This document shows positions 11,337 to 25,792 of a stretch of 64,000 nt of DNA, in pieces. The position numbers and the translations under genes are program-made. Origin of the DNA: an uncultured Spirochaetota bacterium (GTDB lineage Bacteria; Spirochaetota; Spirochaetia; SZUA-6; Fen-1364); contig CAWGAA010000001.1 in assembly GCA_963820525.1 (NCBI GenBank), positions 1,216,001 through 1,280,000 of the forward strand, read 5' to 3'. The notes beneath the pieces were generated by a model, which worked only from the letters and a program-made list of their open reading frames with translations, searched no databases and was not told the DNA's origin. Each line of letters begins with the position of its first letter. Within the stretch, counting starts at the first letter, position 1.

Positions 11337-11796
11337 GGCGTGCCTCCCCGTTCACCACGCGCATCACCGCTTCAACGGGCTTAACGTACCCCGTGCAGCG
11401 GCAGAGAACGCCGCCGAGCGCGTCGCGGACTTCCTCTTCGCTCGGGTGCGCATTCTCTTCGAGCAATGCTTTCGCGGCCAGAATCCGCGCCGGCGTGCAG
11501 TATCCGCACTGGATTGCCCCTGCTTCGACGAACGCGGCCTGCAGCGGATCCAGCCGTTCGCGAGAGCCCAAGGCTTCGATAGTCGTGATGCGCTTTCCAT
11601 CGGCTTGCGCGGCGAGCATGATGCAGCTATTGACCAGCTTGCCGTCCAGAATCACCGCGCATACCCCGCACATGCCGTCTTCGCAGCCATGCTTGACACC
11701 GTAGAAACCTTCGCGTCGAAGCACGTGCAGGAGGGTTTCGACGGGCTCGACGACCCATGTCAGCGGAACCCCGTTCACGTTCACATGGACTTCCAT
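11320..11796 (-). CDS. 2x[2Fe-2S] subunit of a molybdenum hydroxylase (CoxS-like)
   Basis: GCEDGMCGVC, QCGYCTP, LCRCTGY. Confidence 0.95.
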   Translation of the reverse strand: MEVHVNVNGVPLTWVVEPVETLLHVLRREGFYGVKHGCEDGMCGVCAVILDGKLVNSCIMLAAQADGKRITTIEALGSRERLDPLQAAFVEAGAIQCGYCTPARILAAKALLEENAHPSEEEVRDALGGVLCRCTGYVKPVEAVMRVVNGEARHVPPV

Positions 11797-12650
11797 TACA
11801 CAGCTCCTTGTGCGTTTGCCCAGGCTTGCGTGAGAGCGCGCTGCGCAATGACTGCGGCCATTTCGCGCCGGTACTGGCTGGACGCGCGGATATCCCCGAG
11901 TGGAGAGAGTGCTGCGGCAAATTGCTCGATCGCACGGGCTAAACGCTTCTCATCCCAGGCGTGTCCTACAAGTGCAGATTCGATGGACACGGCACGAATA
12001 ACCCGCGTGCCCACGCCGCCTACGGCCAGCCGCACGCGTGTGCATACCAGACCATCGGGGACGACCAGCGCCGCCGCGTTCACAATCGCCGTATCATTCG
12101 GCGTGCGCGCCACACGGACCAGCGCAGCGCCGAAAGGTTTCGCGGGAACCGGGATGCTCAGATCGATGAGAATGCCCGCGCCGAGACAATCGCCCGGCGC
12201 TTTCATGAACTTATCGAGGGCGGCAGTGCGTATCACCTTTGTCCGCATCGAAACGTGCGCGTCGAGCGCTAAAAACGTCGCAAGCAGATCGCACGCTGTT
12301 CCTCCTGAAATGATAGTGCCGCCAATGGTCGCTACGTTGCGGACGTTACGCGGCGCGCACACCCGTGCCGCCTCCGCCAGTATGCCGTTAGCAAAAGCCC
12401 GCGCCATTGGGTCAGACGCCAGCGCTTGAAGGGTAGTCATCGCACCGAGGCGTATCGGCCGTTCCTGCCATTCGATACCAGCGAGATCCAGCGCACTTAA
12501 ATCTACAACTGCGCGCACCGAATCGTTGCGCGATGGAATGAGTGCGGTGCCCCCCGCGAGTGGAACGGTATGAATCATGCTTCGCGCGAGTAGACGCAGC
12601 GCTTCGTTCAGCGTACTCGGGCGAAGATATTCTTCGAGGTTGGGCAGCAT
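11796..12650 (-). CDS. FAD-binding subunit of a molybdenum hydroxylase (CoxM/YgfM-like)
   Basis: YLRPSTLNEA, LAGGT, VRNVATIGG, DIRASSQYR. Confidence 0.92.
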   Translation of the reverse strand: MLPNLEEYLRPSTLNEALRLLARSMIHTVPLAGGTALIPSRNDSVRAVVDLSALDLAGIEWQERPIRLGAMTTLQALASDPMARAFANGILAEAARVCAPRNVRNVATIGGTIISGGTACDLLATFLALDAHVSMRTKVIRTAALDKFMKAPGDCLGAGILIDLSIPVPAKPFGAALVRVARTPNDTAIVNAAALVVPDGLVCTRVRLAVGGVGTRVIRAVSIESALVGHAWDEKRLARAIEQFAAALSPLGDIRASSQYRREMAAVIAQRALTQAWANAQGAV

Positions 12651-12724
12651 TTCACTCCACCTCCCTCACGTCGATACCTTCGAAAATAACATACGCCCCC
12701 ACCCGTGCCAATAGAGAGCCCTCT

Positions 12725-13309
12725 TCACTTCAACATGCCACCCATAATGACATCGATCACCTTTTCTTCTTCCAAGCCCCTCGCCATCAGCGTCTCCACC
12801 TGTTTCTGGTCCACCCTTCCAATTGCCGCCTCATGTTTAGCCTTGGCCAATTCATGCGTGACGCTAACCTTCGGAACAGCGGTCGCTTCCGCCCGGCCCT
12901 GGACTATCTCCACGCAATCCACATGCCCCCGTGCCCCGCGGGCACCAGCGGCAAGCTCGCTGACAATATCGCTTCTTGCCTCTCCCTTGACCGAGACCCG
13001 GCTTTTAATGAGGCCCCGTGCGTCTTCTCCCAGGAGATTGGCCGCCTCACGGATTCTGATCCGATCGGTGCCGGAGCCGTAGACTTTGGCCGTCATCTCC
13101 ATGGATGAACCTGCCAGCGCCTCAGTGTCGTAGTCCAAATCCAGCAGCCCCACCCTGCCGTGAAGCAGGGAAAAGTTCGTGACAAGACGGCTGTTATTTC
13201 CGATTCGGATTTTCGCTTTGGGAATGACCTCAATACCGCCTTTATCGCCGTAGAAATGTACTTCATTGTACGCGTAGGATGCTCTATTGCCCACTTCGAT
13301 CTCCGCGGC
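12725..13309 (-). pseudogene. 5'-truncated second copy of sufBD (C-terminal ~194 codons)
   Basis: Collinear with 14871-15455 from AAEIEVGNRASY to the stop; upstream sequence is unrelated and has no cognate start. Confidence 0.85.
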
Positions 13310-13407
13310 GACTTCCGAGCCGACAGATGGCGACCAAACACTGACTGCTGAAGGTAGCTGCGGTCCATCTCCCGGGCTGGTGGATTGCATGATCGGCGAC
13401 GATGAGC

Positions 13408-13854
13408 CTAGTTGGCCTGCCAGTCGTCTTCAAGCACTCCTACGATCTCTGACCTCAGGTTCTTGCCCGCCGTCTGCCTCTTTGAGATAGCGTGCAGGAC
13501 GGCGAACGAGCCAGCGAAAAAGACCGCCGCGCCGGCGATGCCAATCCCCTCACTCGCCCCGGGTGCCCCGAGTGCCAGCCCTAGGGCTGCCCCGACACCG
13601 TAGCCGGCGAACAATGCAAGCAGTGGCACGACGAACAGCTTCAGCGACGCCTTCGCCGGGTTGATTCCCTTTGTTTCTATCAGGACTCGGTCGCCGGGCG
13701 AGACGCCTACGCGGTCGAAGACCTCCGCTTCCATGTACTTGCCGAGGTCATGGTACAGGCAGCCCTGGCAGCCCATAGCACAATCCCTTGGACGTTCAAT
13801 TTGAACCAGCGCCTTGCTGTGGCCGCTCTCGATCACGATTCCTCGTTCCTCCAT
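13408..13854 (-). CDS. RseC/MucC family membrane protein
   Basis: MEERGIVI start, CAMGCQGC motif, GDRVLI, two C-terminal TM helices. Confidence 0.8.
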   Translation of the reverse strand: MEERGIVIESGHSKALVQIERPRDCAMGCQGCLYHDLGKYMEAEVFDRVGVSPGDRVLIETKGINPAKASLKLFVVPLLALFAGYGVGAALGLALGAPGASEGIGIAGAAVFFAGSFAVLHAISKRQTAGKNLRSEIVGVLEDDWQAN

Positions 13855-13950
13855 AAGAACCTCCGTGGCCTGCGCGAAGAGTATTCTGCATCGACCGACA
13901 ATGAAAACCTGAGACGTTAAAATTGCCTTTCGAGTGATACCTCAGTTTGC

Positions 13951-14020
13951 GCGCTTCGTTCAGCGTACTCGGGCGAAGGTATTCTTCGAGGTTGGGCAGC
14001 ATTTCACTCCACCTCACTCA
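13951..14020 (-). repeat. Duplicate of the RBS and first 17 codons of the FAD-subunit gene (direct repeat of 12599-12668)
   Basis: GAGGTGGAGTGAAATGCTGCCCAACCTCGAAGAATA... encodes MLPNLEEYLRPSTLNEA in both places, with two mismatches over ~70 bp. Confidence 0.9.
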
Positions 14021-14065
14021 AGTCGACACTCAAGACATTCACAGGCGTCCCCACCTGTGCCAACA

Positions 14066-14428
14066 TCAGCAGCACCCGGTTTTCCCGGCCAGGGAGGCGA
14101 AATCGAAGCCAAGCAAACGACTCAACTCGCCATTGACCCTCCGAAAGAAAATGCGAAGCTTTTCCTGGGCATCCAGATATGCGTTCACTTTTCCATTGAC
14201 CTTCCGCTGGATTTGCGAAATTTCCTCGAGATCGGTCACGGTGATGGCCCCTCTGACGTGCATTGCCTGGGTGGCCGTCTGGATACGCGCTTGCTTTTCC
14301 AGCAGTTGAAGCGCCTCTTCATCATCTTCAAGCCCCTCTCTTGCCTTGAGATACTCCTCAACCACTGGAGTCTGTCGCAATGCTTCCCCAAGAGCACGTG
14401 CCGATTGCTCAAGCTGAATGAGCGTCAT
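14066..14428 (-). CDS. YlbF/YmcA-like helical protein ending in Cys-Cys
   Basis: ARALGEALRQTPVVEEYLKA..AYLDAQ..LGFDFA pattern; C-terminus GKTGCC*. Confidence 0.7.
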   Translation of the reverse strand: MTLIQLEQSARALGEALRQTPVVEEYLKAREGLEDDEEALQLLEKQARIQTATQAMHVRGAITVTDLEEISQIQRKVNGKVNAYLDAQEKLRIFFRRVNGELSRLLGFDFASLAGKTGCC

Positions 14429-14437
14429 CTCACCACC

Positions 14438-14833
14438 TCACCCGCAACGGCTGCTCGCGCCATGCAGCGCGAAATCGATATCTAAAGCTTCGCTCAAGTG
14501 AACGTTCAAGACCTGGCACAAGGTGTGCAACTCACCCTCAGCTTCCAGATAGGAAGCGACGGCAGGCATCAGCCTGTAGGAGGCGGAGAGTTCCTGGAGC
14601 TTCTTCCGATGCACGGGAGCGGCGATGTTAAGCAGATTGCCGCCGCGTACCCGCGACTGCAGCTCTCGAATGCGCCGAGCGGTTGTCATGGCATGTTCGC
14701 CCTTCGCGATACCTGCCAGCGCCTCCTCCCATTCATGGAACTGCTGGGTTTCGAGCAGCATCTTCGCGAACGTATAGGCCGCTTCCCGCACGGCATCCGG
14801 GATGTCCCCCGATTCATTTTGGCTCATTCTCAT
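14438..14833 (-). CDS. YlbF/YmcA-like helical protein
   Basis: AAYTFAKMLLETQQF..PAVASYLEAE..LDIDFA; C-terminus SSRCG*. Confidence 0.65.
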   Translation of the reverse strand: MRMSQNESGDIPDAVREAAYTFAKMLLETQQFHEWEEALAGIAKGEHAMTTARRIRELQSRVRGGNLLNIAAPVHRKKLQELSASYRLMPAVASYLEAEGELHTLCQVLNVHLSEALDIDFALHGASSRCG

Positions 14834-14870
14834 ACTCCTTCAATGAAACGACCAACTGCGTGCGCCCCCT

Positions 14871-15806
14871 TCACTTCAGCATCCCGCCGATGACCAGGTC
14901 GATCGCCCTTTCCTCCTCCAGGCCCCTCGCCATCAGCGTTTCCACCTGTTTCTGGTCCACCCTTCCGATGGCCGCCTCGTGCGTGACCTTGGCCAGTTCA
15001 TGCGTGACACTGACCTTCGGAACGGCGGTCGCTTCCGCCCGACCCTGGACAATCTCCACGCAATCCACATGCCCCCTTGCCCCGCGGGCGCCGGCGGTGA
15101 GCTCGCTGACAATATCGCTTCTAGCCTCTCCCTTGACCGCGATCCGGCTTTTGATCAGGCCTCGGGAGCCTTCGCCTAGGAGATGGGCAGCTTCACGGAT
15201 CCTGATCCGATCCGTGCCGGAGCCGTAGACTTTGGCCGTCATCTCCATGGATGAGCCGGCCAGCACCTCCGTATCGTAGTCCAAATCGAGCAGTCCCACC
15301 CTGCCCTGGAGCAGGGAAAAGTTGGTGACCAGACGGCTGTTATTCCCGATACGGATCTTCGCCTTGGGAATGACTTCAATACCGCCGTCCTGGCCATGGA
15401 AATGAACCTCGTTGTACGTGTAGGAGGCCCTGTTGCCCACTTCGATCTCCGCGGCCATGCGGTGTACCACTTTCACGGCATTCGGAAAAACGCAGTGGGC
15501 AAGCAGCTCCACGCCGGAGCCATCCTGAATCTCGACATTCATCAGGATCTCCTGCACTCCCTCTTGAGGCATGACCCCAAAGCACAGGTGCACCGGCCGC
15601 TCGATTCGGACCCCCTTCTTGACGATCAGCCGCACCCGCACCCCCGATTCCGTTTCCACAGGCTCGAGAATCAGGCCATCCACAAGGTGACTCCCGATGA
15701 CCTTGTTTTTGTGGACGACCAGGTGGGCGATATTCGAATCCTTGAATGTCTCCGGCGTTCCTCCGGCCTGTGCGTAGGCGTCCAGCATGAGCTCATAGTC
15801 CTGCAT
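14871..15806 (-). CDS. SufBD family Fe-S scaffold, short SmsB-like form
   Basis: PVHLCFG, LAHCVFP, YNEVHFHG, ARGHVDCVEIV, VTHEAAIG, LMARGL; ~311 aa. Confidence 0.9.
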   Translation of the reverse strand: MQDYELMLDAYAQAGGTPETFKDSNIAHLVVHKNKVIGSHLVDGLILEPVETESGVRVRLIVKKGVRIERPVHLCFGVMPQEGVQEILMNVEIQDGSGVELLAHCVFPNAVKVVHRMAAEIEVGNRASYTYNEVHFHGQDGGIEVIPKAKIRIGNNSRLVTNFSLLQGRVGLLDLDYDTEVLAGSSMEMTAKVYGSGTDRIRIREAAHLLGEGSRGLIKSRIAVKGEARSDIVSELTAGARGARGHVDCVEIVQGRAEATAVPKVSVTHELAKVTHEAAIGRVDQKQVETLMARGLEEERAIDLVIGGMLK

Positions 15807-16566
15807 CAGGCCGACTCTCCTCACTCTGATGGCGCTCCTCCGCTTCGAAGACCCTTGTCGGGCAGGGGATGCATTTCTCCTTGAAATACCTCCCCACTTC
15901 GGGCGGCTTTCCCTCCTTCACGATGAGGCCGGAGCAGATGAGCGAGCTCCTGTCCGCTATCTCCGCCACTTCCTCTCGGTGGGTGATCAGGAGCACGGTG
16001 GTTCCCTGCTCCTTCAGCTCCTGGATCAAGAGGACTATATTGTCCAGGGCCAGAATATCGATCCCCGAGTCCGGCTCGTCCAAAATCGCCAGGCGCGGCT
16101 TCATGGCGAACACCGCCGCAAGCTCGATGCGCTTTCTTTCCCCGCCGCTCAGAGTTTTGTCCACCGGCCGCTGAAGGTAGTCCTTCGGCGTGAGCAGGAC
16201 TTTCTCCAACGCTTCCTCGACTCGGCCGGTACGGTCGGCGCCGATGCCGACGGAGATAAAGTCCCTCACGGTCAAACCTTCGAAACGGGCCGGCTCCTGC
16301 CACGCGAGAGTCATCCCCATCTTTGCCCGCTGGGAGATGGAAAGGCGCGTGATGTTCTTGTTCAGGAAGAAAATCGATCCACTCGTAAGGGCGTAGTCAT
16401 GGCAGCCCATGAGGGCTGCCGCGAGGCTGGATTTTCCGGCCGCGTTCGAGCCCAGGATCGAGTGCACGGTACCGGCTCTGACTGAGAGAGAAACCTCCTT
16501 CAGAATGGACCTTCCGTCTCGAACCAGAGAAATATGATCTGCGCGCAGCATCTCCGTCTTATCCAT
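15793..16566 (-). CDS. sufC: SufC/SmsC-like ABC ATPase
   Basis: GSNAAGKS, LAWQEPARFEG, LSGGERKRIELA, ILDEPDSGID, C-terminal CIPC (CxxC typical of SmsC). Confidence 0.88.
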   Translation of the reverse strand: MDKTEMLRADHISLVRDGRSILKEVSLSVRAGTVHSILGSNAAGKSSLAAALMGCHDYALTSGSIFFLNKNITRLSISQRAKMGMTLAWQEPARFEGLTVRDFISVGIGADRTGRVEEALEKVLLTPKDYLQRPVDKTLSGGERKRIELAAVFAMKPRLAILDEPDSGIDILALDNIVLLIQELKEQGTTVLLITHREEVAEIADRSSLICSGLIVKEGKPPEVGRYFKEKCIPCPTRVFEAEERHQSEESRPDAGL

Positions 16567-17197
16567 CGCGGTGTTCCACCTCTGCGCGCGGCAAATCGGG
16601 CGGAACCGTTTTCCCATCGTCGGAATCCCTGCCGGCCTCTGACCGTGCATCGAGATCTCGGGCCACGCGAATTGCCGTCTTGAGTATGACGTCAAGACGC
16701 GCGAGGCGTCCCCATCCCTCTCCGCCGCAGGCCATTTCCCCATACTCAGGCTCGACGAAATGGTAGCCGTAGGCTTTCAGCTTCCTGACATTATCCTGGA
16801 CGATGGGATTCAGCCACATGTTCTCGTTCATGGCGGGACAGATAATGACCGGCGCCTTCAGAGCCATGATGATGGTGGTGAGCATGTCGTCGGCTATGCC
16901 GCCCGCGACCTTGCCGATGAAGTTCCCCGTGGCTGGCGCCACCACGGCGAGGTCTGCAAATCGGGCGAGCACGATATGCTCGACGCGGGAATGATCCCCA
17001 TCCGCGAACATACCCACCGTGACCCGATGCCCCGAGATCGTCTCGAGAGTCAACGGTGGAATGAACTTTGTGGCCGCCTCCGTCATGATCACGCGCGTGT
17101 CGGCGAGCCGCGACCGGAACATGCCGATCAGGTCGGCAGCTTGGTAAGCGGCGATCCCTCCGGTAACACCGAGAAGGATGCGTTTCCCTGCAAGCAC
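16559..17197 (-). CDS. Stand-alone HFCD flavoprotein (CoaC / PPC decarboxylase-like, no CoaB domain)
   Basis: ILLGVTGGIAAY, EHI, VAPATGN, GIADD, PAMNENMW, GEMACG..GRL. Confidence 0.88.
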   Translation of the reverse strand: MLAGKRILLGVTGGIAAYQAADLIGMFRSRLADTRVIMTEAATKFIPPLTLETISGHRVTVGMFADGDHSRVEHIVLARFADLAVVAPATGNFIGKVAGGIADDMLTTIIMALKAPVIICPAMNENMWLNPIVQDNVRKLKAYGYHFVEPEYGEMACGGEGWGRLARLDVILKTAIRVARDLDARSEAGRDSDDGKTVPPDLPRAEVEHRDG

Positions 17198-17245
17198 GGG
17201 ATAATTCTCACGGGGCCGGAGCGAGTGCCCGGCCTTCCGTGGTCC

Positions 17246-17614
17246 TCAGCAGGCTGCCGCCGGAGCGGCGTTGGCGGCGAAGTCGAAGCCGAGAAGACTG
17301 CTCATGGCCTGGTTGCAGCTCCCCAGCAACTCCAGGGCTTCGTCCCGAGCAGTAACGAGCCGGACGTTCGCGGGATGGGTAGTGACCCTCTTGTACAGCG
17401 CGCGCAGCTTCGAGATATCTTCCTGGGAGTACGTTCCGTCGAACTGCTTGGTTCGAAACTCCTCGACCATCCGGGCGTGCTGGTCGAGCAAGGCCGACAA
17501 TTCCTCGTCACCCTCCATTGAAGCCTTCGCCTCCTTAAATGCAGAGACGACAGGGCTCGCCGCGAGCACACGCACGAACTCGTCGGCCGATTCTTGAAGT
17601 GTCGTATCGATCAT
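17246..17614 (-). CDS. YlbF/YmcA-like helical protein ending in Cys
   Basis: ADEFVRVLAASPVVSAFKEA..HPAN..LLGFDFAA; C-terminus APAAAC*(TGA). Confidence 0.7.
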   Translation of the reverse strand: MIDTTLQESADEFVRVLAASPVVSAFKEAKASMEGDEELSALLDQHARMVEEFRTKQFDGTYSQEDISKLRALYKRVTTHPANVRLVTARDEALELLGSCNQAMSSLLGFDFAANAAPAAAC

Positions 17615-17626
17615 ATGATCCCTCCG

Positions 17627-18031
17627 TTAACAGCAGCCGCCCGCCGGCTTGGTCATGTCTGCGAAATCGAAGCCGAGCGTCCCGGTGAGATAGTCGTTCA
17701 GATCCTTGAGGGCGACGAGGAGATCCTCCTGCGCCGCCATGTAACGCCTGTAGGTCGGGTGGGCGATCAGCTTTTTCTCCAGGCCTTGAAAACGGCCTTC
17801 GAAGCTTTTATCGCTGCCGCCCCAGCTCCATTTCATCTGTGCATCCCGCCGCGCGCTCTGATACACGCGAAACAGCTTTTGCGCATCCGCATCGGCGCGG
17901 AATACCATGGAGGCTGCTTCGAACTCCTTGTAGACATCCGACTCCGCCACCTTTCGCGCCAGGGCTTGAGCCGCCTCTTGAGCGGCACGGACCGTTGCAT
18001 TGTCCGTCTGATTCTGTTCCGTCTGTCGCAT
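17627..18031 (-). CDS. YlbF/YmcA-like helical protein ending in Cys-Cys
   Basis: AQALARKVAESDVYKEF..HPTYRRYMAAQEDL..LGFDFADM; C-terminus PAGGCC*; RBS AAGGAGG. Confidence 0.75.
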   Translation of the reverse strand: MRQTEQNQTDNATVRAAQEAAQALARKVAESDVYKEFEAASMVFRADADAQKLFRVYQSARRDAQMKWSWGGSDKSFEGRFQGLEKKLIAHPTYRRYMAAQEDLLVALKDLNDYLTGTLGFDFADMTKPAGGCC

Positions 18032-18050
18032 GATTTCCTCCTTCTGCTTC

Positions 18051-18401
18051 CTATGCGGCGGGCGTAACCGTGAGGCCGCGGGCCTCGAGAGCCTCGCGGA
18101 TGGTCCGCTCCGAGATTTTCCCTCCGCTTTGAACGATCTCATCATCCACGGTGATGATTGGTACGTGCGCGGATCCGTCCTGCACGCGGGCCATTACCTG
18201 CGAGAACTGAAAGAACCCGGGGGAGAAGAGCTGAATGAACTCGAACGCCACCTGGCTGCCGAAGCGGCCTGCAAGGCGCTGAAAGATCACATCGGCCGCG
18301 TTTTCCCATGTCTTGCCTCCCGCACACCCTGAGATCGGTGGGGCGAACACGCGCACCACCACCGGCCGGGAAGCCGCGCGCGCCTGCTGCGTGTCCGGCA
18401 T
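18051..18401 (-). CDS. Small thioredoxin-fold-like protein
   Basis: VVRVFAPPISGCAG..VAFEFI..VPIITVDDEIVQSGGKI (cis-Pro loop pattern); start overlaps the upstream stop (TGATG). Confidence 0.6.
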   Translation of the reverse strand: MPDTQQARAASRPVVVRVFAPPISGCAGGKTWENAADVIFQRLAGRFGSQVAFEFIQLFSPGFFQFSQVMARVQDGSAHVPIITVDDEIVQSGGKISERTIREALEARGLTVTPAA

Positions 18402-18628
18402 CAGCAGCATCCCGCTCCGCTGCCGGGACCGCAGGCCGGCATTCCACCCAACCCTCCGGAGGAACCCGTCCTCGCGGAGGAGAGAATTCCGATCGTCCCG
18501 AAAACCTGCGTGGCCTTCTTCGAACCGCACGAGGGACACTCAGGGTGGAGTCCCGCCTCTTTTTCGGCTACCGACGCGGTGACGTCGAACATCATACCGC
18601 ACTCCTTGCACCGATACTCATACGTCAT
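18401..18628 (-). CDS. FmdB-family zinc ribbon protein ending in Cys-Cys
   Basis: MTYEYRCKECG..F..ECPSCGS; Gly-rich tail ending PACGPGSGAGCC*. Confidence 0.85.
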   Translation of the reverse strand: MTYEYRCKECGMMFDVTASVAEKEAGLHPECPSCGSKKATQVFGTIGILSSARTGSSGGLGGMPACGPGSGAGCC

Positions 18629-18664
18629 TTCAACGATCCTCCTGTTGCCCTGCGCCGCATTCCG

Positions 18665-20587
18665 TCAGCGTACGCTCGGCTCCGGTTCTTCCTGGAACAA
18701 CACATGCGCAGCGCGGCCCACCATTTCAAGACCGATGATCTCGGTCTCGAGGAGCGGCATGATCGCCACCGGGAGGCCGAAGCGCTTCCTGATCTCCGCG
18801 AGGTATTTCTCCTGCATGGCACGACGCTTTCTGAAGTAGTCATTCGTGCAATACTCGCGCGAGAGCACTTGATTGGTAATGACGAGCTGAGTCCCGATAC
18901 CGGCATCCCGCAGGTCGAGCATGGCGCGGTACGCTTCCACAACGGGGGTGGACTCGGGATAGACCACGAAGACGAAAACCGAACGCTCGGGATCCTTCAT
19001 CTGGGCGATGATGTGGTCGAAACGCTTCTGCATCTCGGACTTGGCTCCGGCTGAGGACGCGTTCGTGGTGACCATCAGCCCGATCTGATCGCTATAGTCA
19101 AAGGGCAGCTCGAGAAGCCGCAGCGTATGGCCGGTAGGCGCGGTGTCGAATATCACCACGTCGTACGCCTCCTGCTCCACGTACCCCATGAACTTGTCGA
19201 ATGCCGCCATCTCCTCCGTGCAGGGCGATTCAAGCTCTTCGCGCACCGCGGCAAGCATATCCTGCGAGTACTTCTTTTTCGCCTCCTCGATGATGCGCGC
19301 CTTGTATTCCAATACGGCCTTCTCCTGATCGATCATGACGGCCCACAGGTTTTCAACTCCCTCAACGGACTGGATTGTATCGTTCACGTCCTGGTTTAGC
19401 ACCTGACCGATGTGGGATGCCGGATCCGTGGTGAGAAGAAGCGTCCTGAGGCCACGCGCGGCGGTTGCGTATGCGGCGGCGCACGCCATGGTCGTCTTGC
19501 CGACTCCGCCCTTGCCGGTGAAGAACACCGCCTTCGATTTTCCGCTCACGGGCCGAAAGAGATCCATCAGCGATGCCGAATCGAGCGTCTCGAAGACCTT
19601 CGCTTCGGGGCTCACGACGCGCTCTGATGCCGCACCGATCCACGCGCCTCCCCTCTCCGACGAAAGACGGAAGCTCGGGGCATGCCCGTTTTCCGAAAAC
19701 AGATCGTTGGCGATATTGAGAAGACCCGGTATCCCTTTTATCTCACCGTCCCGCTGCAGCATCCGCCGGGTCGGGACGGGGAACTCCAGGGCGATGCGCG
19801 CGAGATACCCCTGCTGCATGTCGAATCGACTCTTGAAGAAGGGATGCTCGCATACTTCCTCCGGCAGAATTCCGTTCACGATGAGACTCACGTTCTTGAC
19901 GCCGATTGTGGCGAGTTCCGCCGAGGAACGTTTTGTCTCATAGAGCGAAGTCTCCTCGGGCTGAAGAACGAAGATGAAGTCGGTGCGCGCCGCGTCTCCC
20001 AGAAGGCGGGTCGCCTCGTCGTACTTCTTCTTGTTCTCCTGTATCGCCGCCACAGGGCCGATGCAGGTGTTGCCGCCGCCTTTGGCGCTCTCCTCGATGT
20101 GCTTGCTCCAATCGACGGGAAGCTCGAGCAGCCGTATCGTGTGCCCCGTGGGCGCGGTATCGAAGATGACCACATCGTAGGCTTTGTCACCATCGGTCGA
20201 TTCCTCGGTCATGAAGTCCACGAAGCGGTCGAATGAGGCGATCTCGGTGGTGCAGGGCGAGCGGAACTGCTCCTCCATCACTTTCATGACTTCCGCCGGC
20301 ATGACCGCCCGCATGGGCGCCAGGATGCGCTCGCGGTATTCCTCGGTGGCTTTGTCGGGGTCGATTTCCATGCCCCAAAGGTTGGGCAGGCCGAGAGGAC
20401 GAATTCGGTGGCCGATCTCCATCTCGAATACGTCTGCGAGGTTCGACGCAGGATCAGTGGTGACAATGAGCGTCCTTTTGCCCTGGCCGGCGGAGTGGAC
20501 CGCCGTGGCACAGGCCATGGTCGTCTTCCCGACTCCTCCTTTTCCCGAGAAGAACACGTAGCGGGTCTTGATGTTCCTTGATTTCAT
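18665..20587 (-). CDS. arsA: Arsenite-activated ATPase with two nucleotide-binding domains
   Basis: Two GKGGVGKT motifs, two DTAPTGHT signatures, SPCT in both halves, TCIGP. Confidence 0.93.
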   Translation of the reverse strand: MKSRNIKTRYVFFSGKGGVGKTTMACATAVHSAGQGKRTLIVTTDPASNLADVFEMEIGHRIRPLGLPNLWGMEIDPDKATEEYRERILAPMRAVMPAEVMKVMEEQFRSPCTTEIASFDRFVDFMTEESTDGDKAYDVVIFDTAPTGHTIRLLELPVDWSKHIEESAKGGGNTCIGPVAAIQENKKKYDEATRLLGDAARTDFIFVLQPEETSLYETKRSSAELATIGVKNVSLIVNGILPEEVCEHPFFKSRFDMQQGYLARIALEFPVPTRRMLQRDGEIKGIPGLLNIANDLFSENGHAPSFRLSSERGGAWIGAASERVVSPEAKVFETLDSASLMDLFRPVSGKSKAVFFTGKGGVGKTTMACAAAYATAARGLRTLLLTTDPASHIGQVLNQDVNDTIQSVEGVENLWAVMIDQEKAVLEYKARIIEEAKKKYSQDMLAAVREELESPCTEEMAAFDKFMGYVEQEAYDVVIFDTAPTGHTLRLLELPFDYSDQIGLMVTTNASSAGAKSEMQKRFDHIIAQMKDPERSVFVFVVYPESTPVVEAYRAMLDLRDAGIGTQLVITNQVLSREYCTNDYFRKRRAMQEKYLAEIRKRFGLPVAIMPLLETEIIGLEMVGRAAHVLFQEEPEPSVR

Positions 20588-20606
20588 GTGAGATTCCTTT
20601 CGTCTC

Positions 20607-20945
20607 CTACTCTGAAGCTACCGGTTGTTGTGCGTACTGAAGAAGCTCATCATAGGTGGGGAATTCCCTCGTTTTCACCACCCTGCCATTGACCGCGGTC
20701 ACCGGAAGCACGCCCGTGCTCTGCTCCTTCAGGAGCGCGAGAACATCCGGGTTCTGCATGAACTTCGCCCCCTGTTGCTGAAGCAGGTAGCGGTGTACCA
20801 CGATACCGTGGTTGTTCTTCATCTTCAGCACCGCCTCGTTCAGATCCAAGAGCGCCGGGTCGATGACCGGTCCGCAGAGGCCCCCGGGGCAGCACATGGG
20901 AGGATCGAAGATCTCGATAAGAACGTTCGTGTTCATGCGCGCCAT
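20607..20945 (-). CDS. arsD: Arsenic metallochaperone
   Basis: IFDPPMCCPGGLCGP (CC-x4-C site), LPVTAVNG..FPT. Confidence 0.92.
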   Translation of the reverse strand: MARMNTNVLIEIFDPPMCCPGGLCGPVIDPALLDLNEAVLKMKNNHGIVVHRYLLQQQGAKFMQNPDVLALLKEQSTGVLPVTAVNGRVVKTREFPTYDELLQYAQQPVASE

Positions 20946-21361
20946 ACCCTCTCCTTTGTATGCATTCGTCCTCGCTCGAAACGTCTGGGGGACAACTTCC
21001 CTTCAGGAGGGAAACCCACAATGCACTTTCCATCCTCTCGGAGGCGGAGCCGCCTTTCCAACTGCTTTCGGTCCAGATCGAACGTCTCACTGGTGAGAAA
21101 AGCCTCAAGAAACTCAAACACTGTTGCGTTCGCATCGTTTTCTTTTTCCACCGAATGGTAAGCCCAGGTTCCTTCCTTTTCGACCTTCACAAGCTCCGCG
21201 TTTTTCAGAATGAGCAGATGCCGGGATACCTGGTATTGGGGAAGGCTCAGGGCATCCACCATCTCGCATACGCACAAGGGAACCTTCGCCGCGAGTAAAA
21301 TGTTCATCAAGCGGAGCCTGGTTTCATCGGCAAGGGCTTTCATCACCCGTGTTTGCTTCAT
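20933..21361 (-). CDS. arsR: ArsR/SmtB repressor with alpha3 CxC metalloid site
   Basis: KALADETRLRLM, LCVCEM, VSRHLLILKNAELV, KEGTWAYHS. Confidence 0.9.
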   Translation of the reverse strand: MKQTRVMKALADETRLRLMNILLAAKVPLCVCEMVDALSLPQYQVSRHLLILKNAELVKVEKEGTWAYHSVEKENDANATVFEFLEAFLTSETFDLDRKQLERRLRLREDGKCIVGFPPEGKLSPRRFERGRMHTKERVWRA

Positions 21362-21394: not shown

Positions 21395-21646
21395 TTACAT
21401 ATTTAAAATAGCATAATACTAGCCAACTGTCAACTCCCGCCCTAGCACCGAGAAACCAAGAGACTGACGCCCCGTTTGTGAAGAATGCCCAGTATTCAAT
21501 TCTGCCTGGATTGACCGGAGCGGCGGTTCACCGTGAAATTGCGGGGACAGAGCAACGCTTACACGCCTTTCGGCCAGTTCGAACACGCCGTTGCTGCTCA
21601 AACTCTTTCCGCCCCCGCGATTTGTTCATTTTTGTCAATTCCGTTC

Positions 21647-21680
21647 TTGACAAATATTTGCTTCATGGTAGAATTGCCAT
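21647..21680 (+). promoter_or_regulatory. Promoter and dyad for the right arm
   Basis: TTGACA-16 nt-TAGAAT with extended TG; dyad ATGGTA-gaat-TGCCAT overlaps the -10. Confidence 0.6.
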
Positions 21681-21686
21681 TTAGCC

Positions 21687-22004
21687 ATGGATACGAAAAC
21701 TCTCAGATTGTATCAGGGTCGCGTGAAGGTCATTAAAGCGCTCGCCCACCCAAGCCGCCTTTATATGGTCGATAAGCTCTCGGAGCGGGCACACTGCGTG
21801 AACGAGCTCACCGCGCTGGTAGGCTGCGATATGTCAACCGTGTCGAAGCACCTGAGCGTGTTGAAAAACGCGGGGGTCGTGCAGGACGAGAAACGCGGGA
21901 CCGCTATCTACTATTCACTGAGCGTGCCCTGCATCCTCAACTTCTTCAAGTGCACTGACGCGGTGCTCAAGGCTATCAAGGAGGAAGAGATGAGCCTCGT
22001 GTAA
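21687..22004 (+). CDS. ArsR/SmtB family regulator
   Basis: KALAHPSRL, HCVNEL, STVSKHLSVLKNAG, YYSL..PC..FFKC. Confidence 0.92.
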   Translation: MDTKTLRLYQGRVKVIKALAHPSRLYMVDKLSERAHCVNELTALVGCDMSTVSKHLSVLKNAGVVQDEKRGTAIYYSLSVPCILNFFKCTDAVLKAIKEEEMSLV

Positions 22005-22010
22005 GACGTA

Positions 22011-22168
22011 TGGGTTTGACACTCGTCGGATCAGGGAGAGGGTGATGGAAATCAAATTTGAGCTCAAAAAGGAGTGGAAACCGCTCCTCGGCATCGTCGC
22101 GCTTTTCCTGGCCTCCTACTATCTGCCGATAGGTCTCCGGCGCTTCGACGGCGCTGTCAAGGAAGCCC
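22011..22168 (+). repeat. Duplicate of the RBS and first ~41 codons of the permease gene (direct repeat of 23162-23319)
   Basis: MEIKFELKKEWKPLLGIVALFLASYYLPIGLRRFDGAVKEA versus MEVKLELKKEWKPLLGIVALFLAAYYLPIGLPRFDGAVKEA. Confidence 0.9.
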
Positions 22169-22181
22169 CAAACGCGCGTAA

Positions 22182-22203
22182 TAGTTCAATAGGTATTGAA
22201 CTA
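22182..22203. promoter_or_regulatory. Perfect 10-2-10 inverted repeat, ArsR/SmtB-type operator candidate
   Basis: TAGTTCAATA-GG-TATTGAACTA, 33 nt upstream of the USP start. Confidence 0.65.
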
Positions 22204-22236
22204 ATCATATAGGAAAAGCTTGCAAGGGGGAGCGGT

Positions 22237-23109
22237 ATGTTCAGCAAAATACTGATCGCATCCGATTTGTCCGAAGCATCGAACGAGATGATACGATGCA
22301 TACAGGGGCTTCGACTTCTCGGAAGCCGCGAAGCGGTTCTTTTTCACGCGCTTCGAATTCGGCATCTCGATGACCTGAAATACGAGCTCGCGCGATACGC
22401 CGAGCCGCAGCTGCAAAAGCAAAAGGCCGCCCTCGAAGCGCTCGGCTTTACGACAAAAATCGAAATAGCCCCGAGCGAAACAGCGTACGAGTTGGAACGT
22501 GCCGCAAGGAAAGAAAATATCTCGCTCGTCGTGATCGCTACCCACGGCAAGAGCCTCCTGAAACACGCGTTTATGGGGGGCGAGGCGACCAAGATACTCC
22601 AACACCACACCAAGCCGGTTCTGGTGATTCGAATAGCCATCACTGAAAGAGAGGGAGAGACAAAATGCGAAGCGAGTTGCCTAGACCCCTCAAGGAAAAT
22701 CCTGTATGCGACAGACTTTTCCGACACGGCCCAGCGGGCATTCACCTATGTTGAAATGATGGTGGAGAGCGGCTGGAAGAAAATAACTGTCCTGCACGTG
22801 CAGGACAGTACGAGAATAGACAAACACCTCAAAGAGCGTCTGGACGAATTCAATTCGATCGACACCGAGCGCCTCGAAATGCTAAAGGATGCGCTGCTGA
22901 AGAAGGGCGCCTCGGAGGTCGACATTGCCCTTTCGTACGGGTTGCCGTTTCAGGAAATCACAAAGATGGCAAAGAGCAATTTGTATTCCATCATCGTGAT
23001 GGGGAGCCAGGGAAGGGGCTTTGCCGAGGAAATATTTCTGGGAAGCGTGAGCCACAACTTGGTGCGCCATGCTCCCATTCCGGTACTGCTTGTGCCAGCG
23101 TTACGTTAG
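22237..23109 (+). CDS. Tandem-domain universal stress protein
   Basis: KILIASDLS..VIATHG..KPVLVI and KILYATDFS..VMGSQGRG..LGSVS..PVLLVP. Confidence 0.93.
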   Translation: MFSKILIASDLSEASNEMIRCIQGLRLLGSREAVLFHALRIRHLDDLKYELARYAEPQLQKQKAALEALGFTTKIEIAPSETAYELERAARKENISLVVIATHGKSLLKHAFMGGEATKILQHHTKPVLVIRIAITEREGETKCEASCLDPSRKILYATDFSDTAQRAFTYVEMMVESGWKKITVLHVQDSTRIDKHLKERLDEFNSIDTERLEMLKDALLKKGASEVDIALSYGLPFQEITKMAKSNLYSIIVMGSQGRGFAEEIFLGSVSHNLVRHAPIPVLLVPALR

Positions 23110-23195
23110 ATGATTGCCTTACAAGTGCTGACGTCGTCTAGGCGCTTTTTTCTTTATCGTGTGGGCGTGACCCGCGTCGGATCAGGGAGAGGGTA

Positions 23196-24506
23196 ATGGA
23201 AGTCAAATTGGAACTCAAAAAGGAGTGGAAGCCGCTCCTCGGCATCGTCGCGCTTTTCCTGGCTGCCTACTATCTGCCGATAGGTCTCCCGCGCTTCGAC
23301 GGCGCCGTCAAGGAAGCCCTTTCGCTGGTCAAATGGTACGCGCAGGAGCATGTGCTTCTCTGCCTGGTTCCCGCGTTCTTCATTGCCGGCGCCATCGGGG
23401 TATTCGTCAACCAGGCCTCGGTAATGAAGTACCTCGGACCCAAGGCGAACAAGCTTCTTTCATACTCAGTCGCCTCGGTTTCAGGAACCGTCCTCGCGGT
23501 CTGCTCCTGCACCGTTCTTCCCCTTTTCTCGGGTATATACCGAATGGGCGCCGGCATCGGTCCGGCTACCGCCTTCCTCTACTCCGGCCCCGCCATCAAT
23601 GTGCTGGCCATCGTGTTCACGGCCCGCATCCTGGGCCTGGAAATGGGTGTTGCCCGGACCGTGGGCGCCGTGGCGTTCAGTGTCATCATCGGGCTCTTCA
23701 TGCACCTGATCTTCCGAAAGGAGGAACAGGCCAAGGCGGCGGCGTGGGCGTCGATGCCGGAGCCCGAGGTCAAACGCCCCCTGTGGCAGAATGGCGTTTT
23801 TTTCGCTCTTCTTGTGGCGATCCTCGTGTTCGCCAATTGGGCAAGGCCTGAGATCCCCTTCGGCGCATGGTACGCGATCTGGACGGTCAAATGGCCGGTC
23901 ACGGCCGCAGCATCGATCGGGCTGGGGGCAGTGCTGATCGGATGGTTCAAGCTGGCGTGGTGGAAGATCGCCCTTACCGCCGCCCCGACGCTCGCCCTCG
24001 CCCTCATCTTCCCCGGCATTCCGCAGCTCGCGTTCGGATCCGCCGTGGTCGGGCTTTCAATCAGCCTGGCCACCGACAAGGCCGAGGGAGGAGGATGGTT
24101 CAACACTTCGTGGGGTTTCGCCAAGCAGATTTTCCCCCTTCTGTTCCTCGGTGTCTTTTTCTCCGGCCTCTTCCTGGGAAGGCCGGGGCACGAGGGGCTC
24201 ATCCCTTCGGGATGGATAGCTCATCTTGTAGGAGGGAACTCGCTTTGGTCCAACCTGTTCGCCTCGGTGGCCGGGGCTCTCATGTATTTTGCCACTCTCA
24301 CCGAGGTGCCCATCCTCCAGGGCTTGATGGCGAACGGCATGGGAAAGGGCCCGGCCCTCGCTCTGCTCTTGGCGGGACCCGCCCTTTCGCTTCCCAGCAT
24401 GCTGGTGCTTCGAAGCATCCTGGGAACGAGGAAGGCGCTCACGTACATCCTTCTCGTGGTAGCAATGGCGACTGTGACCGGAATAGCCTACGGCGCCTTG
24501 TTTTGA
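23196..24506 (+). CDS. DUF318 / ArsP-type permease
   Basis: HVLLCLVPAFFIAGAI, VCSCTVLP, FLYSGPAIN, MYFATLTEVP, LLLAGPALSLP. Confidence 0.88.
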   Translation: MEVKLELKKEWKPLLGIVALFLAAYYLPIGLPRFDGAVKEALSLVKWYAQEHVLLCLVPAFFIAGAIGVFVNQASVMKYLGPKANKLLSYSVASVSGTVLAVCSCTVLPLFSGIYRMGAGIGPATAFLYSGPAINVLAIVFTARILGLEMGVARTVGAVAFSVIIGLFMHLIFRKEEQAKAAAWASMPEPEVKRPLWQNGVFFALLVAILVFANWARPEIPFGAWYAIWTVKWPVTAAASIGLGAVLIGWFKLAWWKIALTAAPTLALALIFPGIPQLAFGSAVVGLSISLATDKAEGGGWFNTSWGFAKQIFPLLFLGVFFSGLFLGRPGHEGLIPSGWIAHLVGGNSLWSNLFASVAGALMYFATLTEVPILQGLMANGMGKGPALALLLAGPALSLPSMLVLRSILGTRKALTYILLVVAMATVTGIAYGALF

Positions 24507-24525
24507 TTTGCAGGAGGAAATGCCG

Positions 24526-24762
24526 ATGAAGATCGAAGTCCTCGGGCCGGGCTGCCCCAAGTGCCAGAGCACCGAGCAGAATGTGATGAAAGCCTTGGGA
24601 GAGCTGAACCTCCAAGCAGAGGTGGTGAAGGTGACCGACATCAATGCCATCATCGAGCGGGGCGTCATGTGGACGCCGGCTCTCGTTATCGACGGGAAAT
24701 TAGCCCTGCAGGGCAAGATTCCGACGGTGGATCAGATCAAGCAGCTCATAAAAGGGGGATGA
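24526..24762 (+). CDS. Small redox-active disulfide protein (MTH895-like thioredoxin)
   Basis: IEVLGPGCPKC, GVMWTPALVIDG..GKIP. Confidence 0.9.
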   Translation: MKIEVLGPGCPKCQSTEQNVMKALGELNLQAEVVKVTDINAIIERGVMWTPALVIDGKLALQGKIPTVDQIKQLIKGG

Positions 24763-24766
24763 TCCG

Positions 24767-25030
24767 ATGGGAAGCTATGGAAGGTGGCGAGGCGTGCCGA
24801 GAGAGCAGGTGCCCTGGTATCCCACGGTTGATTCGGCGAAGTGCAAGGGATGCAAGGAGTGCTACGGTTTTTGTCATCAGAAAGTCTTCGCCTGGGATGC
24901 GGAGAACGACAAAACCCTTGTCGCCGAGCCGTATCGGTGCGTGGTGGGCTGCAGCACCTGCGCGAGCCTCTGCAAAGAAGGGGCGATATCCTTCCCGCCC
25001 TTGACTATCCTGAAAAACATCGGGAGGTGA
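24767..25030 (+). CDS. 2x[4Fe-4S] ferredoxin
   Basis: CKGCKECYGFC and CVVGCSTCASLC; N-terminal GVPREQVPWYP. Confidence 0.88.
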   Translation: MGSYGRWRGVPREQVPWYPTVDSAKCKGCKECYGFCHQKVFAWDAENDKTLVAEPYRCVVGCSTCASLCKEGAISFPPLTILKNIGR

Positions 25031-25035
25031 ACCGC

Positions 25036-25329
25036 ATGGAGACTGTAGTAAAAGATTACCTGGGCATCCCAAGGAACCTCATTCCCTGGTTTCCGTCCGT
25101 GGACGGGGCCAGATGCAAGGGCTGCTCCACCTGCGTCAAAGCCTGCAAGCACGAAGTATTCGCCTACGACAGCTCTAAGAAACAGGCTTTCGTCGCAAAC
25201 CCCTATTCCTGTGAAGTCTTCTGCCAGAGCTGCCAATTCCAGTGCAACGAGGAAGCCATCTCTTTTCCCGACAAAAGTCGGGTGAAAGAGATCATCAAGA
25301 AGCTGCGGGAACAGTACCCGCCAAGATGA
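25036..25329 (+). CDS. 2x[4Fe-4S] ferredoxin (paralog of the previous gene)
   Basis: CKGCSTCVKAC and CEVFCQSCQFQC; N-terminal GIPRNLIPWFP. Confidence 0.88.
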   Translation: METVVKDYLGIPRNLIPWFPSVDGARCKGCSTCVKACKHEVFAYDSSKKQAFVANPYSCEVFCQSCQFQCNEEAISFPDKSRVKEIIKKLREQYPPR

Positions 25330-25349
25330 CCGAAGAATGGAGGGACGCC

Positions 25350-25718
25350 ATGAAGGATAAACCGAGATTTCTCCTCTGCGTTTGTCGGGGCGACTGTCCA
25401 GGTTTCGCGAAACTGGACATCTGGAAGTTCATCAACTTCGTGCGCAACGAGCTCGAAGTGGAATATGCCGTCGCGCACCCACAGATGTGCGTTGACGACG
25501 GCGACCGATTCTGGAAGGATTATGCGAAGAAAGGCGCAACGTATATCGTGGCGGGTTGCGATCCGAAGATGCAGCGCAAGATGTACAAGGACGCCCTCGC
25601 GGAAGTAGGATGCGATTTCGACAAGCAGGTATTCCCGATTGACCTGAGGAATATTCCCACGGAGGAGGCGATGCAGAAGATCAAAACCTTCGTGGAAGAG
25701 GTGAACAGTAGAACGTGA
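25350..25718 (+). CDS. Stand-alone protein resembling the N-terminal Fe-S domain of heterodisulfide reductase A
   Basis: LLCVCRGDC..HPQMC..IVAGCDP..IDLRN matches the HdrA N-terminal CxC..C..AC.P..NiR pattern. Confidence 0.65.
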   Translation: MKDKPRFLLCVCRGDCPGFAKLDIWKFINFVRNELEVEYAVAHPQMCVDDGDRFWKDYAKKGATYIVAGCDPKMQRKMYKDALAEVGCDFDKQVFPIDLRNIPTEEAMQKIKTFVEEVNSRT

Positions 25719-25792
25719 TGCTCTTCCCTGGCTCGCGGACCGGCGATGGAACTCTGCCTTGCTGCGGCCAAAGATCATCATGCTGTGGATGA
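25718..25792 (+). CDS. 24-aa Cys-rich peptide MLFPGSRTGDGTLPCCGQRSSCCG (below the ORF-track cutoff)
   Basis: ATG overlaps the upstream stop (TGATG), GAGGTG lies upstream, and the stop abuts the acr3 RBS. Confidence 0.55.
   Translation: MLFPGSRTGDGTLPCCGQRSSCCG

Follow-up and report, generated by a model that had tools for sequence, protein, structure and literature searches.

An extended arsRDA operon with cysteine-tailed YlbF-like proteins, a CoaC-like flavoprotein and an SMS Fe-S scaffold in an uncultured Spirochaetota bacterium

A 64,000-nucleotide stretch of the genome of an uncultured Spirochaetota bacterium (hereafter the window; positions 1,216,001 to 1,280,000 of contig CAWGAA010000001.1, assembly GCA_963820525.1) carries, at 14066-21361 on the minus strand, twelve co-oriented and partly overlapping open reading frames (ORFs) in the order arsR, arsD, arsA, zinc ribbon, 116-aa protein, Y1, Y2, flavoprotein, smsC, smsB, Y3 and Y4, where Y1 to Y4 stand for YlbF-like proteins. 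Each had an ORF call and, with the exception of the 116-aa protein, the support of a Pfam or NCBIfam family, and the tightly packed series of twelve same-strand genes with stop/start overlaps described in an original prediction, made from the DNA letters alone, was found in full. We found that the zinc ribbon, the ArsD/YuzD-like 116-aa protein and the YlbF pair form a core module that travels with arsD-arsA. The best explanation of the whole, which we hold at somewhat less than even confidence, would be an ArsR-controlled arsenite operon with As(III)-capturing protein tails, a flavoprotein that decarboxylates those tails and an arsenite-induced SMS system as iron-sulfur (Fe-S) backup.

The cysteine-tailed core module

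The zinc ribbon and the four YlbF-like proteins all carry cysteine at or next to their C-terminal end. The zinc ribbon (18401-18628) is of the FmdB type (TIGR02605) and combines a flexible Gly/Ser linker with a C-x7-CC tail that ends in AGCC, and the last residues of Y1 (17627-18031), Y2 (17246-17614), Y3 (14438-14833) and Y4 (14066-14428) are GGCC, AAAC, SRCG and TGCC, respectively, just as first read; the L(G/D)xDFA motif said to precede the tail was present in all four as L(G/D)(F/I)DFA. Y1 to Y4 scored 57.4, 51.7, 35.0 and 49.2 bits against PF06133 (cut-off 23.9) and are the only YlbF-family genes of this genome; a word search with Y4 returned a single non-self relative, with 64% identity. 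The top NCBIfam match of all four was HcsL (NF041416), with 61.2, 36.6, 24.2 and 44.5 bits for a cut-off of 140, and the existence of this family, together with ArsA_halo (NF041417), bears out as a database family the CC-terminated haloarchaeal proteins that the original prediction had mentioned.

Conservation of the tails was examined in 69 metagenome loci encoding relatives of the operon's ArsA (58-89% identity), whose ORFs were annotated with the window's proteins; many of these contigs are short, and in 17 of the loci arsA is flanked by 3 kb or more on either side. A Cys was found among the last three residues in all of the 68 Y ORFs and all of the 39 zinc ribbons, and a Cys-Cys pair in 55 and 36 of them, respectively. 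The terminal pair of Y1 was invariant in an alignment of 33 sequences, and the terminal-region Cys of Y2 was retained in at least 90% of 31. In 35 zinc ribbons, invariance extended to the four ribbon cysteines and to the leading Cys of the terminal pair, and the pair's second Cys and a tail Cys located 6-8 residues upstream were retained in at least 90%. A HMMER scan of 1.84 billion representative sequences with a Y1 profile recovered 2323 proteins at E<=0.001, 491 of them at E<=1e-10, and 139 of the best 150 had Cys among the last three residues, so that the proposed conservation of the tails held both in the ArsA loci and in the best database representatives. Fourteen of these best 150 were 253-308 aa long and 11 of the 14 contained two matched stretches, being natural Y-Y fusions that retain the first Cys tail in the linker between domains (e.g. 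P0132, P0134, P0141-P0143 and P0145). Because such fusions occur, a YlbF-like heterodimer is supported. A predicted complex of Y1 and Y2 with the zinc ribbon scored 0.18, the mark being 0.32, and counts neither way.

The fourth component of the module, the 116-aa protein (18051-18401), had no Pfam or NCBIfam match. An alignment of 26 sequences revealed a single conserved Cys, which lies in the loop that follows strand 1, and the fold predicted from the alignment (pLDDT 89.5, pTM 0.80) was thioredoxin-like, with a beta-alpha-beta-alpha-alpha-beta-beta-alpha topology. Foldseek placed 1xg8 (S. aureus SA0789) first, followed by ArsD (3kgk_B, TM 0.58/0.67, and 3mwh_B) and then by thioredoxins. The protein lacks both a sequence match to ArsD and the ArsD Cys triad, and its predicted fold thus resembles that of ArsD in a protein which lies outside the ArsD family.

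Linkage of the module to arsenic genes was apparent in several samples. Among all 69 ArsA loci, we found Y genes in 35, the zinc ribbon in 39, the 116-aa protein in 26, the flavoprotein in 6 and SmsB in 7; in the 17 well-flanked loci, arsD and arsR were each present in 16, and so was the zinc ribbon, followed by the Y pair (12), the 116-aa protein (10), the flavoprotein (4) and SmsB (3). The block of zinc ribbon, 116-aa protein, Y1 and Y2 lay either before arsD or after arsA. Tail-type Y genes were also present in 9 of 301 Chloroflexota genomes, and in the 8 loci fetched from them arsD-arsA directly preceded the pair in 5 and lay 5 kb away in 1; of the other two, one is described below and the last adjoined arsR-Thioredoxin_3-ArsP. 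Co-occurrence with arsA outside this genome, as proposed, was therefore confirmed. The presence of four YlbF-like proteins, also correctly read, is a peculiarity of this genome, two being the rule elsewhere.

Closer to the window, module genes were found in 3 of 61 related genomes, the window's own included. The second of these (G004) has arsR-D-A, zinc ribbon, 116-aa protein, Y1, Y2 and flavoprotein, with smsC reduced to a stump, and the third (G015) has arsD-arsA, 116-aa protein, two Y genes, zinc ribbon, smsC and smsB, and no flavoprotein. The G015 cluster is bordered by a gene for an Nramp-family metal transporter directly 3' of smsB (L010:6433-7806). In a sample of 401 genomes of the phylum, 68 had YlbF-family matches, nearly all of which stopped short of the tail region and have the appearance of ordinary YlbF/YmcA proteins; only the window's genome (G000) and G270 matched through the tail.

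The ars core that accompanies the module is orthodox. The product of arsR (20933-21361) is an ArsR/SmtB repressor with a C-V-C motif (HTH_5, 2.6e-10; NF033788, 78.4 bits, cut-off 55), whose start was placed at 21361 because its orthologue in locus L009 has 139 aa. The ArsD metallochaperone (20607-20945) exceeded its equivalog cut-off (NF033727, 97.8 bits, cut-off 90) and has the N-terminal Cys triad, as CC-x4-C, and no C-terminal Cys pairs, as in short ArsDs. ArsA (18665-20587; PF02374, 489.9 bits) is a two-domain ATPase with two ArsA_ATPase stretches, both halves of which aligned with solved ArsA proteins. Three of its cysteines aligned with cysteines of the solved ArsA 9nbl, which we take to be residues of the metalloid site. 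Its top NCBIfam match was ArsA_halo (658 bits, below the cut-off of 800), and the TIGR04291 equivalog cut-off was missed (503 vs 650 bits). On these grounds ArsA, ArsD and ArsR all look arsenic-competent.

The flavoprotein and the Fe-S scaffold

The gene directly after Y2 (16559-17197) encodes a stand-alone, CoaC-like flavoprotein of the HFCD family (PF02441, 104 bits). It was closest to CoaC (CoaBC structure 6tgv, 6.6e-34), with further PDB matches to human PPCDC and HAL3, and weaker matches to the LanD structures MrsD (9.7e-20) and EpiD (5.5e-15). The equivalog cut-offs for coaBC (TIGR00521, 199.1 vs 219.7), coaC_strep (TIGR02113, 168 vs 261.4) and CypD (NF033753, 22 vs 215 bits) were all missed, and a second Flavoprotein gene, of CoaBC length, is present elsewhere in the genome. 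A Cys in the substrate clamp was considered as a mark of the subfamily and turned out to be uninformative, since it was absent from the ars-linked copies of Chloroflexota as well as from one housekeeping CoaBC.

Wherever it was present (in the window, G004, L013, L092, L093, L095, L096, L097 and L146, and in the Chloroflexota loci L162 and L164), the flavoprotein gene lay directly 3' of Y2, and the Y tails upstream of it ended exactly in Cys in 22 of 22 cases, compared with 16 of 74 in loci devoid of the flavoprotein, where in the other tails the Cys is followed by Gly, Ser or a different residue, typically as CCG. The loci concerned come from at least three lineages, namely the window's family, L013 and Chloroflexota L162/L164. 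HFCD enzymes such as CoaC and LanD act on a terminal cysteine moiety. Because the flavoprotein tracks Cys-ending Y tails and its relatives act on terminal cysteine, the correlation, circumstantial as it is, suggests decarboxylation of the C-terminal Cys. The enzyme might then be a protein-tail decarboxylase acting on folded proteins (Y1 and Y2, and perhaps also the zinc ribbon) and leaving a carboxylate-free thiol end, cysteamine-like or an aminoenethiol, an assignment that we regard as doubtful. Three facts speak against it: the flavoprotein loci are partly close relatives, from perhaps three or four independent lineages, so that few independent events underlie the correlation; most zinc-ribbon tails end in CC even where the flavoprotein is missing; and, besides the 16 Cys-ending tails just mentioned, Y3 of the window itself ends in CG. 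If true, however, decarboxylation would endow the proteins with a pantetheine-like dithiol adapted to binding As(III) or Fe-S clusters, lineages devoid of the enzyme would reach a similar result through a Gly or Ser after the Cys pair, and this would be the first HFCD/LanD-type modification beyond coenzyme A synthesis and ribosomally synthesized and post-translationally modified peptides (RiPPs), as well as a new metal- or metalloid-binding post-translational modification.

The two genes that follow had been read as a minimal Fe-S assembly pair, sufC-sufBD. The first (smsC, 15793-16566) encodes a SufC-like ATPase which aligned over its full length with MJ0035 of Methanocaldococcus jannaschii (3.2e-70), and the second (smsB, 14871-15806) a 311-aa SufBD-family protein (SUFBD_core) that likewise matched MJ0034 in full (2.9e-64). 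In M. jannaschii SmsC, C218, C239 and C242 ligate a [4Fe-4S] cluster, and SMS is able to use sulfide as sulfur source, according to the available text of PMC12192291. All three cysteines are present at the aligned positions of the operon's SmsC, which would accordingly host a [4Fe-4S] site, and, judged by alignment, the pair is a bona fide SMS (SmsCB) scaffold. In SmsB, three Cys and seven His residues were invariant or nearly so in 84 family members, the ars-linked copies included; the NCBIfam SmsB model NF052511 (445 positions, cut-off 650) was not reached (62 bits). This is the only SMS of the genome, apart from a truncated smsB duplicate, and two SufB/SufD-type genes lie on another contig. 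The assembly genes of the original prediction are hence a complete SMS, of a generic anaerobe type rather than of any special arsenic version, and the idea that the SufBD-like protein represents a divergent, arsenic-specific family was discarded because the 311-aa SmsB is shared by many anaerobe phyla.

In a survey of 80 SmsB genome loci from many phyla (45-72% identity), smsC was directly upstream of smsB in 78, and the other two ended at a contig edge. Ten of the 80 had arsA, arsD, a Y gene or a Cys-tailed zinc ribbon within reach. SMS is thus an optional add-on, since SmsB was present in only 7 of the 69 ArsA loci and the remaining 70 survey loci had no ars or Cys-tail gene within reach, a distribution which counts against the reading preferred below. 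A quick SmsB tree of 84 rows, in which the ars-linked rows were the 10 survey loci, the window, G015 and four metagenome cases, placed these rows in about six well-separated neighbourhoods and required 12 label changes, at least 10 of which were forced by well-supported branches; short contigs may hide ars genes in some of the rows labelled as non-ars, which makes the number of events uncertain. One deep clade, with 100% support, consisted of ars-linked rows only. These results indicated that a generic anaerobe SMS has joined ars/Cys-tail clusters in several separate clades. Other Fe-S genes have entered ars islands as well: a DUF59 gene right after the flavoprotein in L096 and L097, IscU in L013 and, in L015, an IscA-like protein ending in SCCG between arsD and arsA, at a locus with neither Y nor zinc-ribbon genes. 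The Bacillus sp. CDB3 ars1 operon includes the HesB-like orf7 (available text of PMC4562236), and the accessible part of PMC11394912 discusses how arsenite affects the regulation of Isc/Suf in E. coli.

Candidate readings and genomic setting

In the reading that we prefer, arsenite would be passed from the ArsD chaperone to the ArsA ATPase and on to an ACR3 carrier encoded in the divergent arm of the locus, all under ArsR. The flexible C-terminal Cys or Cys-Cys tails would capture cytoplasmic As(III) as thiolate complexes and pass it to ArsD/ArsA, acting in trans as the C-terminal Cys pairs do in long ArsD. The flavoprotein would decarboxylate those tails that end exactly in Cys, thereby removing the terminal carboxylate beside the thiols, and SmsC2B2, co-induced by arsenite, would provide a sulfide-using and desulfurase-independent supply of [4Fe-4S] clusters that replaces arsenite-poisoned assembly and clusters. 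As(III) capture is preferred because linkage is mainly to arsD-arsA and arsR, vicinal thiols stand on flexible ends and one module protein has an ArsD-like predicted fold, and also because there is a likeness between the zinc-ribbon tail and the Cys pairs at the C-terminus of long ArsDs, which, as the available text of PMC4562236 describes, are vicinal and are missing from short ArsDs.

A number of observations nevertheless weigh against arsenite as the ligand of the tails. The 69 loci were collected with ArsA as anchor, so that the sample is biased towards arsA linkage. Tail-type Y genes also occur away from arsDA, as Y-Y-arsR-Usp in G270 and as smsC-smsB-Y-Y in Chloroflexota L161, in the latter case with no arsDA within 10 kb. 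YlbF matches were found in 114 genomes of an archaeal phylum sample of 401; the ten low-GC archaeal loci sampled all had a Cys-free Y form, and each of the ten high-GC ones (L170-L179) had a single chromosomal Y gene that ends in GGCCxD or, at one locus, in GCCEDE, ars genes being absent up to 10 kb away in all ten. Because these high-GC archaeal genes have Cys tails without ars neighbours, such tails are a trait of the wider family that extends beyond arsenic islands. Moreover, RicF C134 and C146, together with RicA C141, ligate a [4Fe-4S] cluster with RicT (available text of PMC6751060), and no role of Cys tails other than cluster ligation is known from experiment in the YlbF family. As a separate observation on the archaeal loci, the high-GC Y gene adjoined a 207-aa DUF7125/KaiC-like ORF in the three loci inspected, an unstudied pairing.

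The strongest rival reading follows from that precedent. The YlbF-like pair and the zinc ribbon would ligate a [4Fe-4S] cluster between their tails and serve as an arsenite-induced carrier or store, fed by SMS here and by IscU, IscA or DUF59 in other lineages, from which Fe-S enzymes would be resupplied while ArsDA/ACR3 lowers As(III). In its favour, the Y profile matched the PDB structures of both RicF (2.4e-10) and RicA (1.4e-6), whose tail cysteines set the precedent in the available text of PMC6751060; the genes for Fe-S biogenesis that have entered these islands are of four kinds; smsC-smsB-Y-Y occurs in L041 (on a contig of only 4.6 kb) as well as in L161; the SCCG-tailed IscA-like protein of L015 takes the place between arsD and arsA in the absence of Y and zinc ribbon; Cys-tailed YlbF proteins exist outside ars contexts; and Y pairs with 2+2 cysteines (20) outnumbered those with 2+1 (13). 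The last count also ruled out a fixed number of three As(III)-binding thiolates per Y pair. However, arsD-arsA and arsR are by far the commonest partners of the module, Fe-S genes being rarer, and an Fe-S assembly gene is missing from most loci. A vicinal Cys-Cys pair at a free chain end would be unusual as a cluster ligand and ideal for As(III), by which the carrier itself would be poisoned, and the fourth module protein resembles ArsD rather than any known cluster carrier. We consider Fe-S ligation possible, if on balance unlikely, and rank As(III) capture above it; under either, SMS would best be read as an arsenite-co-induced, sulfide-using Fe-S assembly line. A further idea, that the module substitutes for low-molecular-weight thiols where an organism has none, found no support, given that the genome has GshA-like and BshC-like genes; GshB had no match in this genome.

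A third possibility is that the cluster is a patchwork of independent genes brought together in a recombining arsenic island, with SMS, the flavoprotein and the second Y pair as mere passengers. Recombination is indeed visible after smsB. Downstream of Y4 lies a mosaic junction (12599-14063, minus strand), recognized by its repeats and family matches: the 5' end of a coxM-like gene has been copied (13951-14063 matches 12599-12711, 87% identity) and so has the 3' part of smsB (12718-13017 matches 14864-15163, 87% identity). Thus, smsB is followed in the window by Y3, Y4, the coxM-like 5' copy, an rseC/mucC-like gene (13408-13854, minus strand; RseC_MucC match), the truncated second smsB (12725-13390, minus strand; SUFBD_core match) and then the real coxM-like gene, whereas locus L095 has the window's order through smsB and then directly coxS/coxL-like genes, with no inserts. 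The second Y pair (Y3, Y4) is accordingly a local acquisition and a product of recombination. One 778-nt contig of public run X1 covered 13759-14536, spanning Y4 and the junction, without differences; the run may be the window's source sample, and the contig is then no independent proof of the junction. The loss of smsCB by deletion in G004, the variable order of the module relative to arsDA, the usual grouping of ars-adjacent SmsB with SmsB of the same phylum and the patchy occurrence in related genomes (3 of 61) all agree with a patchwork. But Fe-S genes have joined in several separate SmsB clades, including the ars-only one with 100% support, which is hard to obtain by chance; stop/start overlaps tie flavoprotein, smsC and smsB together; and the flavoprotein is always directly 3' of Y2, its presence tracking tail type. 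An accidental assembly is therefore judged improbable. Apart from this question, xanthine-oxidase-family molybdenum hydroxylase genes (CoxL/M/S-like) adjoin the module in the window (8943-12650) and also in L009 and L095, and L013:5679-7928 has a CoxL/M/S-like gene between flavoprotein and IscU, an independent case.

Finally, the YlbF pair and the zinc ribbon could form a thiol- or cluster-based sensor or adaptor that tunes ars mRNA processing or ArsA activity, since RicAFT is a specificity factor of RNase Y (available text of PMC10245838). The genome does have a PSP1/RicT-like gene, unlinked and on another contig, and the G270 pair stands beside arsR and Usp only. Yet no linkage to an RNase or PSP1 gene was seen in any locus inspected, the module reaches into Chloroflexota and has relatives named in haloarchaea, and its strongest linkage is to ArsD and ArsA, all of which makes a regulatory role very improbable.

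With regard to the organization of the operon, arsR and arsD overlap by ATGA, with a likely arsD start at 20936; the zinc ribbon and 116-aa protein genes share 1 nt (18401); flavoprotein and smsC overlap by 8 nt (smsC start 16566) and smsC and smsB by 14 nt (smsB start 15806), the starts of arsD, smsC and smsB being taken at in-frame internal ATG codons of the ORFs. The remaining intergenic gaps measure 9-48 nt, consensus matching revealed no convincing terminator-like site within the cluster, and all twelve genes are probably co-transcribed. A sigma-70-like promoter precedes arsR (21405-21433, minus strand; TTGACA-17-TATTTT, 10 of 12 matches, with TG), and a divergent promoter-like site lies at 21647-21674 on the plus strand, upstream of a second arsR; both are consensus matches only.

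That second arsR opens a divergent arm (21687-26911, plus strand) in which it is followed by tandem Usp genes, an ArsP_1 permease, Thioredoxin_3, two ferredoxin-like ORFs and the ACR3-type arsenite carrier (25808-26911; SBF, 190 bits). The statement that no pump lies in the operon's own arm is thus true, yet an ACR3-type gene is at hand on the other side. Past ACR3 the arm continues to 30131 with two ORFs of no family, DsbD_2 and two half-length ArsP_1 ORFs; ArsP_1 and Thioredoxin_3 also stand side by side in the Chloroflexota loci L163, L165 and L168. Elsewhere in the same genome there is a second ArsA-family locus (G000:C1:1423307-1425212), whose matches are distributed across three ORFs (559, 318 and 174 aa). 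Further along the window (31114-32567, plus strand), two adjacent ORFs of 331 aa and 145 aa, which may be a split gene, each correspond to a portion of the AIPR abortive-infection family.

Relation to known systems and significance

The operon shares with the arsRDA(B/ACR3) operons, of which R773 is the paradigm, arsR, arsD and arsA with their conserved cysteines and an ACR3-type carrier nearby, but differs from them in its nine further downstream genes, in an ArsD that lacks C-terminal Cys pairs and in an ArsA that fits the haloarchaeal model best, the TIGR04291 equivalog having been missed. A similarly long operon is the Bacillus sp. CDB3 ars1 (arsRYCDAT-orf7-orf8), compared here by description, in which arsD-arsA is also followed by an Fe-S-carrier-like gene and ArsD likewise lacks the C-terminal pairs; YlbF-like, zinc-ribbon, SMS and flavoprotein genes go unmentioned in the available text of PMC4562236. 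The terminal Cys-Cys YlbF-like proteins beside arsA recall the haloarchaeal halo-CC-star proteins HcsL and HcsS with ArsA_halo (NF041416, NF041415 and NF041417), a system compared by its NCBIfam names only; the high-GC archaeal loci sampled above carry another Y gene, of non-ars type. The adjacency to arsA recurs here, although all four Y proteins fall far below the HcsL cut-off, CC is the ending of just two of them, Y1 and Y4 (Y2 has C, Y3 has CG), and the bacterial version adds the zinc ribbon, the thioredoxin-fold protein, the flavoprotein and SMS. In the literature searched, we found no paper on halo-CC-star proteins and none naming both ArsA and YlbF.

The Y proteins share PF06133, the occurrence as paired paralogues and the PDB matches with B. 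subtilis RicA/RicF (YmcA/YlbF), whose disordered C-terminal tails with functional Cys (available text of PMC6751060) can be likened to the Y tails. The differences are that the cluster has no RicT gene, that CC, CCG or C forms the extreme end of the tails and that the linkage is to arsDA. SmsC2B2 of M. jannaschii is homologous over the full length of both subunits and has the same smsC-smsB order and the same three [4Fe-4S]-ligating Cys (available text of PMC12192291); here, the pair is placed inside an ars operon, SufB/SufD-type genes are present elsewhere in the genome, and the pair is accompanied by no SufD of its own. As for the HFCD decarboxylases (CoaC/PPCDC and the LanD enzymes EpiD, MrsD and CypD), the fold family is the same and the gene comes directly after those for Cys-ending proteins. 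On the other hand, this enzyme lacks a CoaB domain, and its neighbourhood contains neither RiPP precursor nor lanthionine genes; its putative substrates would be folded proteins of 75-135 aa rather than the peptides of LanD.

The ars core, SMS, the HFCD enzymes and the YlbF family are thus each already known, and the claim of a candidate new arsenic-stress system stands for the combination only, as the core is catalogued in NCBIfam. What is new is the full combination in one operon, SMS as an Fe-S partner that has joined repeatedly, the ArsD-like predicted fold of the fourth module protein and the correlation between flavoprotein and terminal Cys.

ArsD and ArsA are the textbook pair of arsenite chaperone and ATPase, and four unstudied small Cys-bearing proteins accompany a large ArsA clade that extends over sediments, wetlands, Chloroflexota and relatives of this genome. 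Tails that carry As(III) would add to arsenic trafficking an upstream step missing so far, and tails that carry Fe-S clusters would mean that arsenic islands encode a cofactor-repair line of their own. The repeated joining of SMS, IscU, IscA-like and DUF59 genes provides genomic support for Fe-S biogenesis as a prime in vivo target of arsenite in anaerobes, and the recently defined SMS may have a role in stress. Taken together, the gene set hints at microbes that couple the removal of arsenite to the protection or resupply of Fe-S cofactors.

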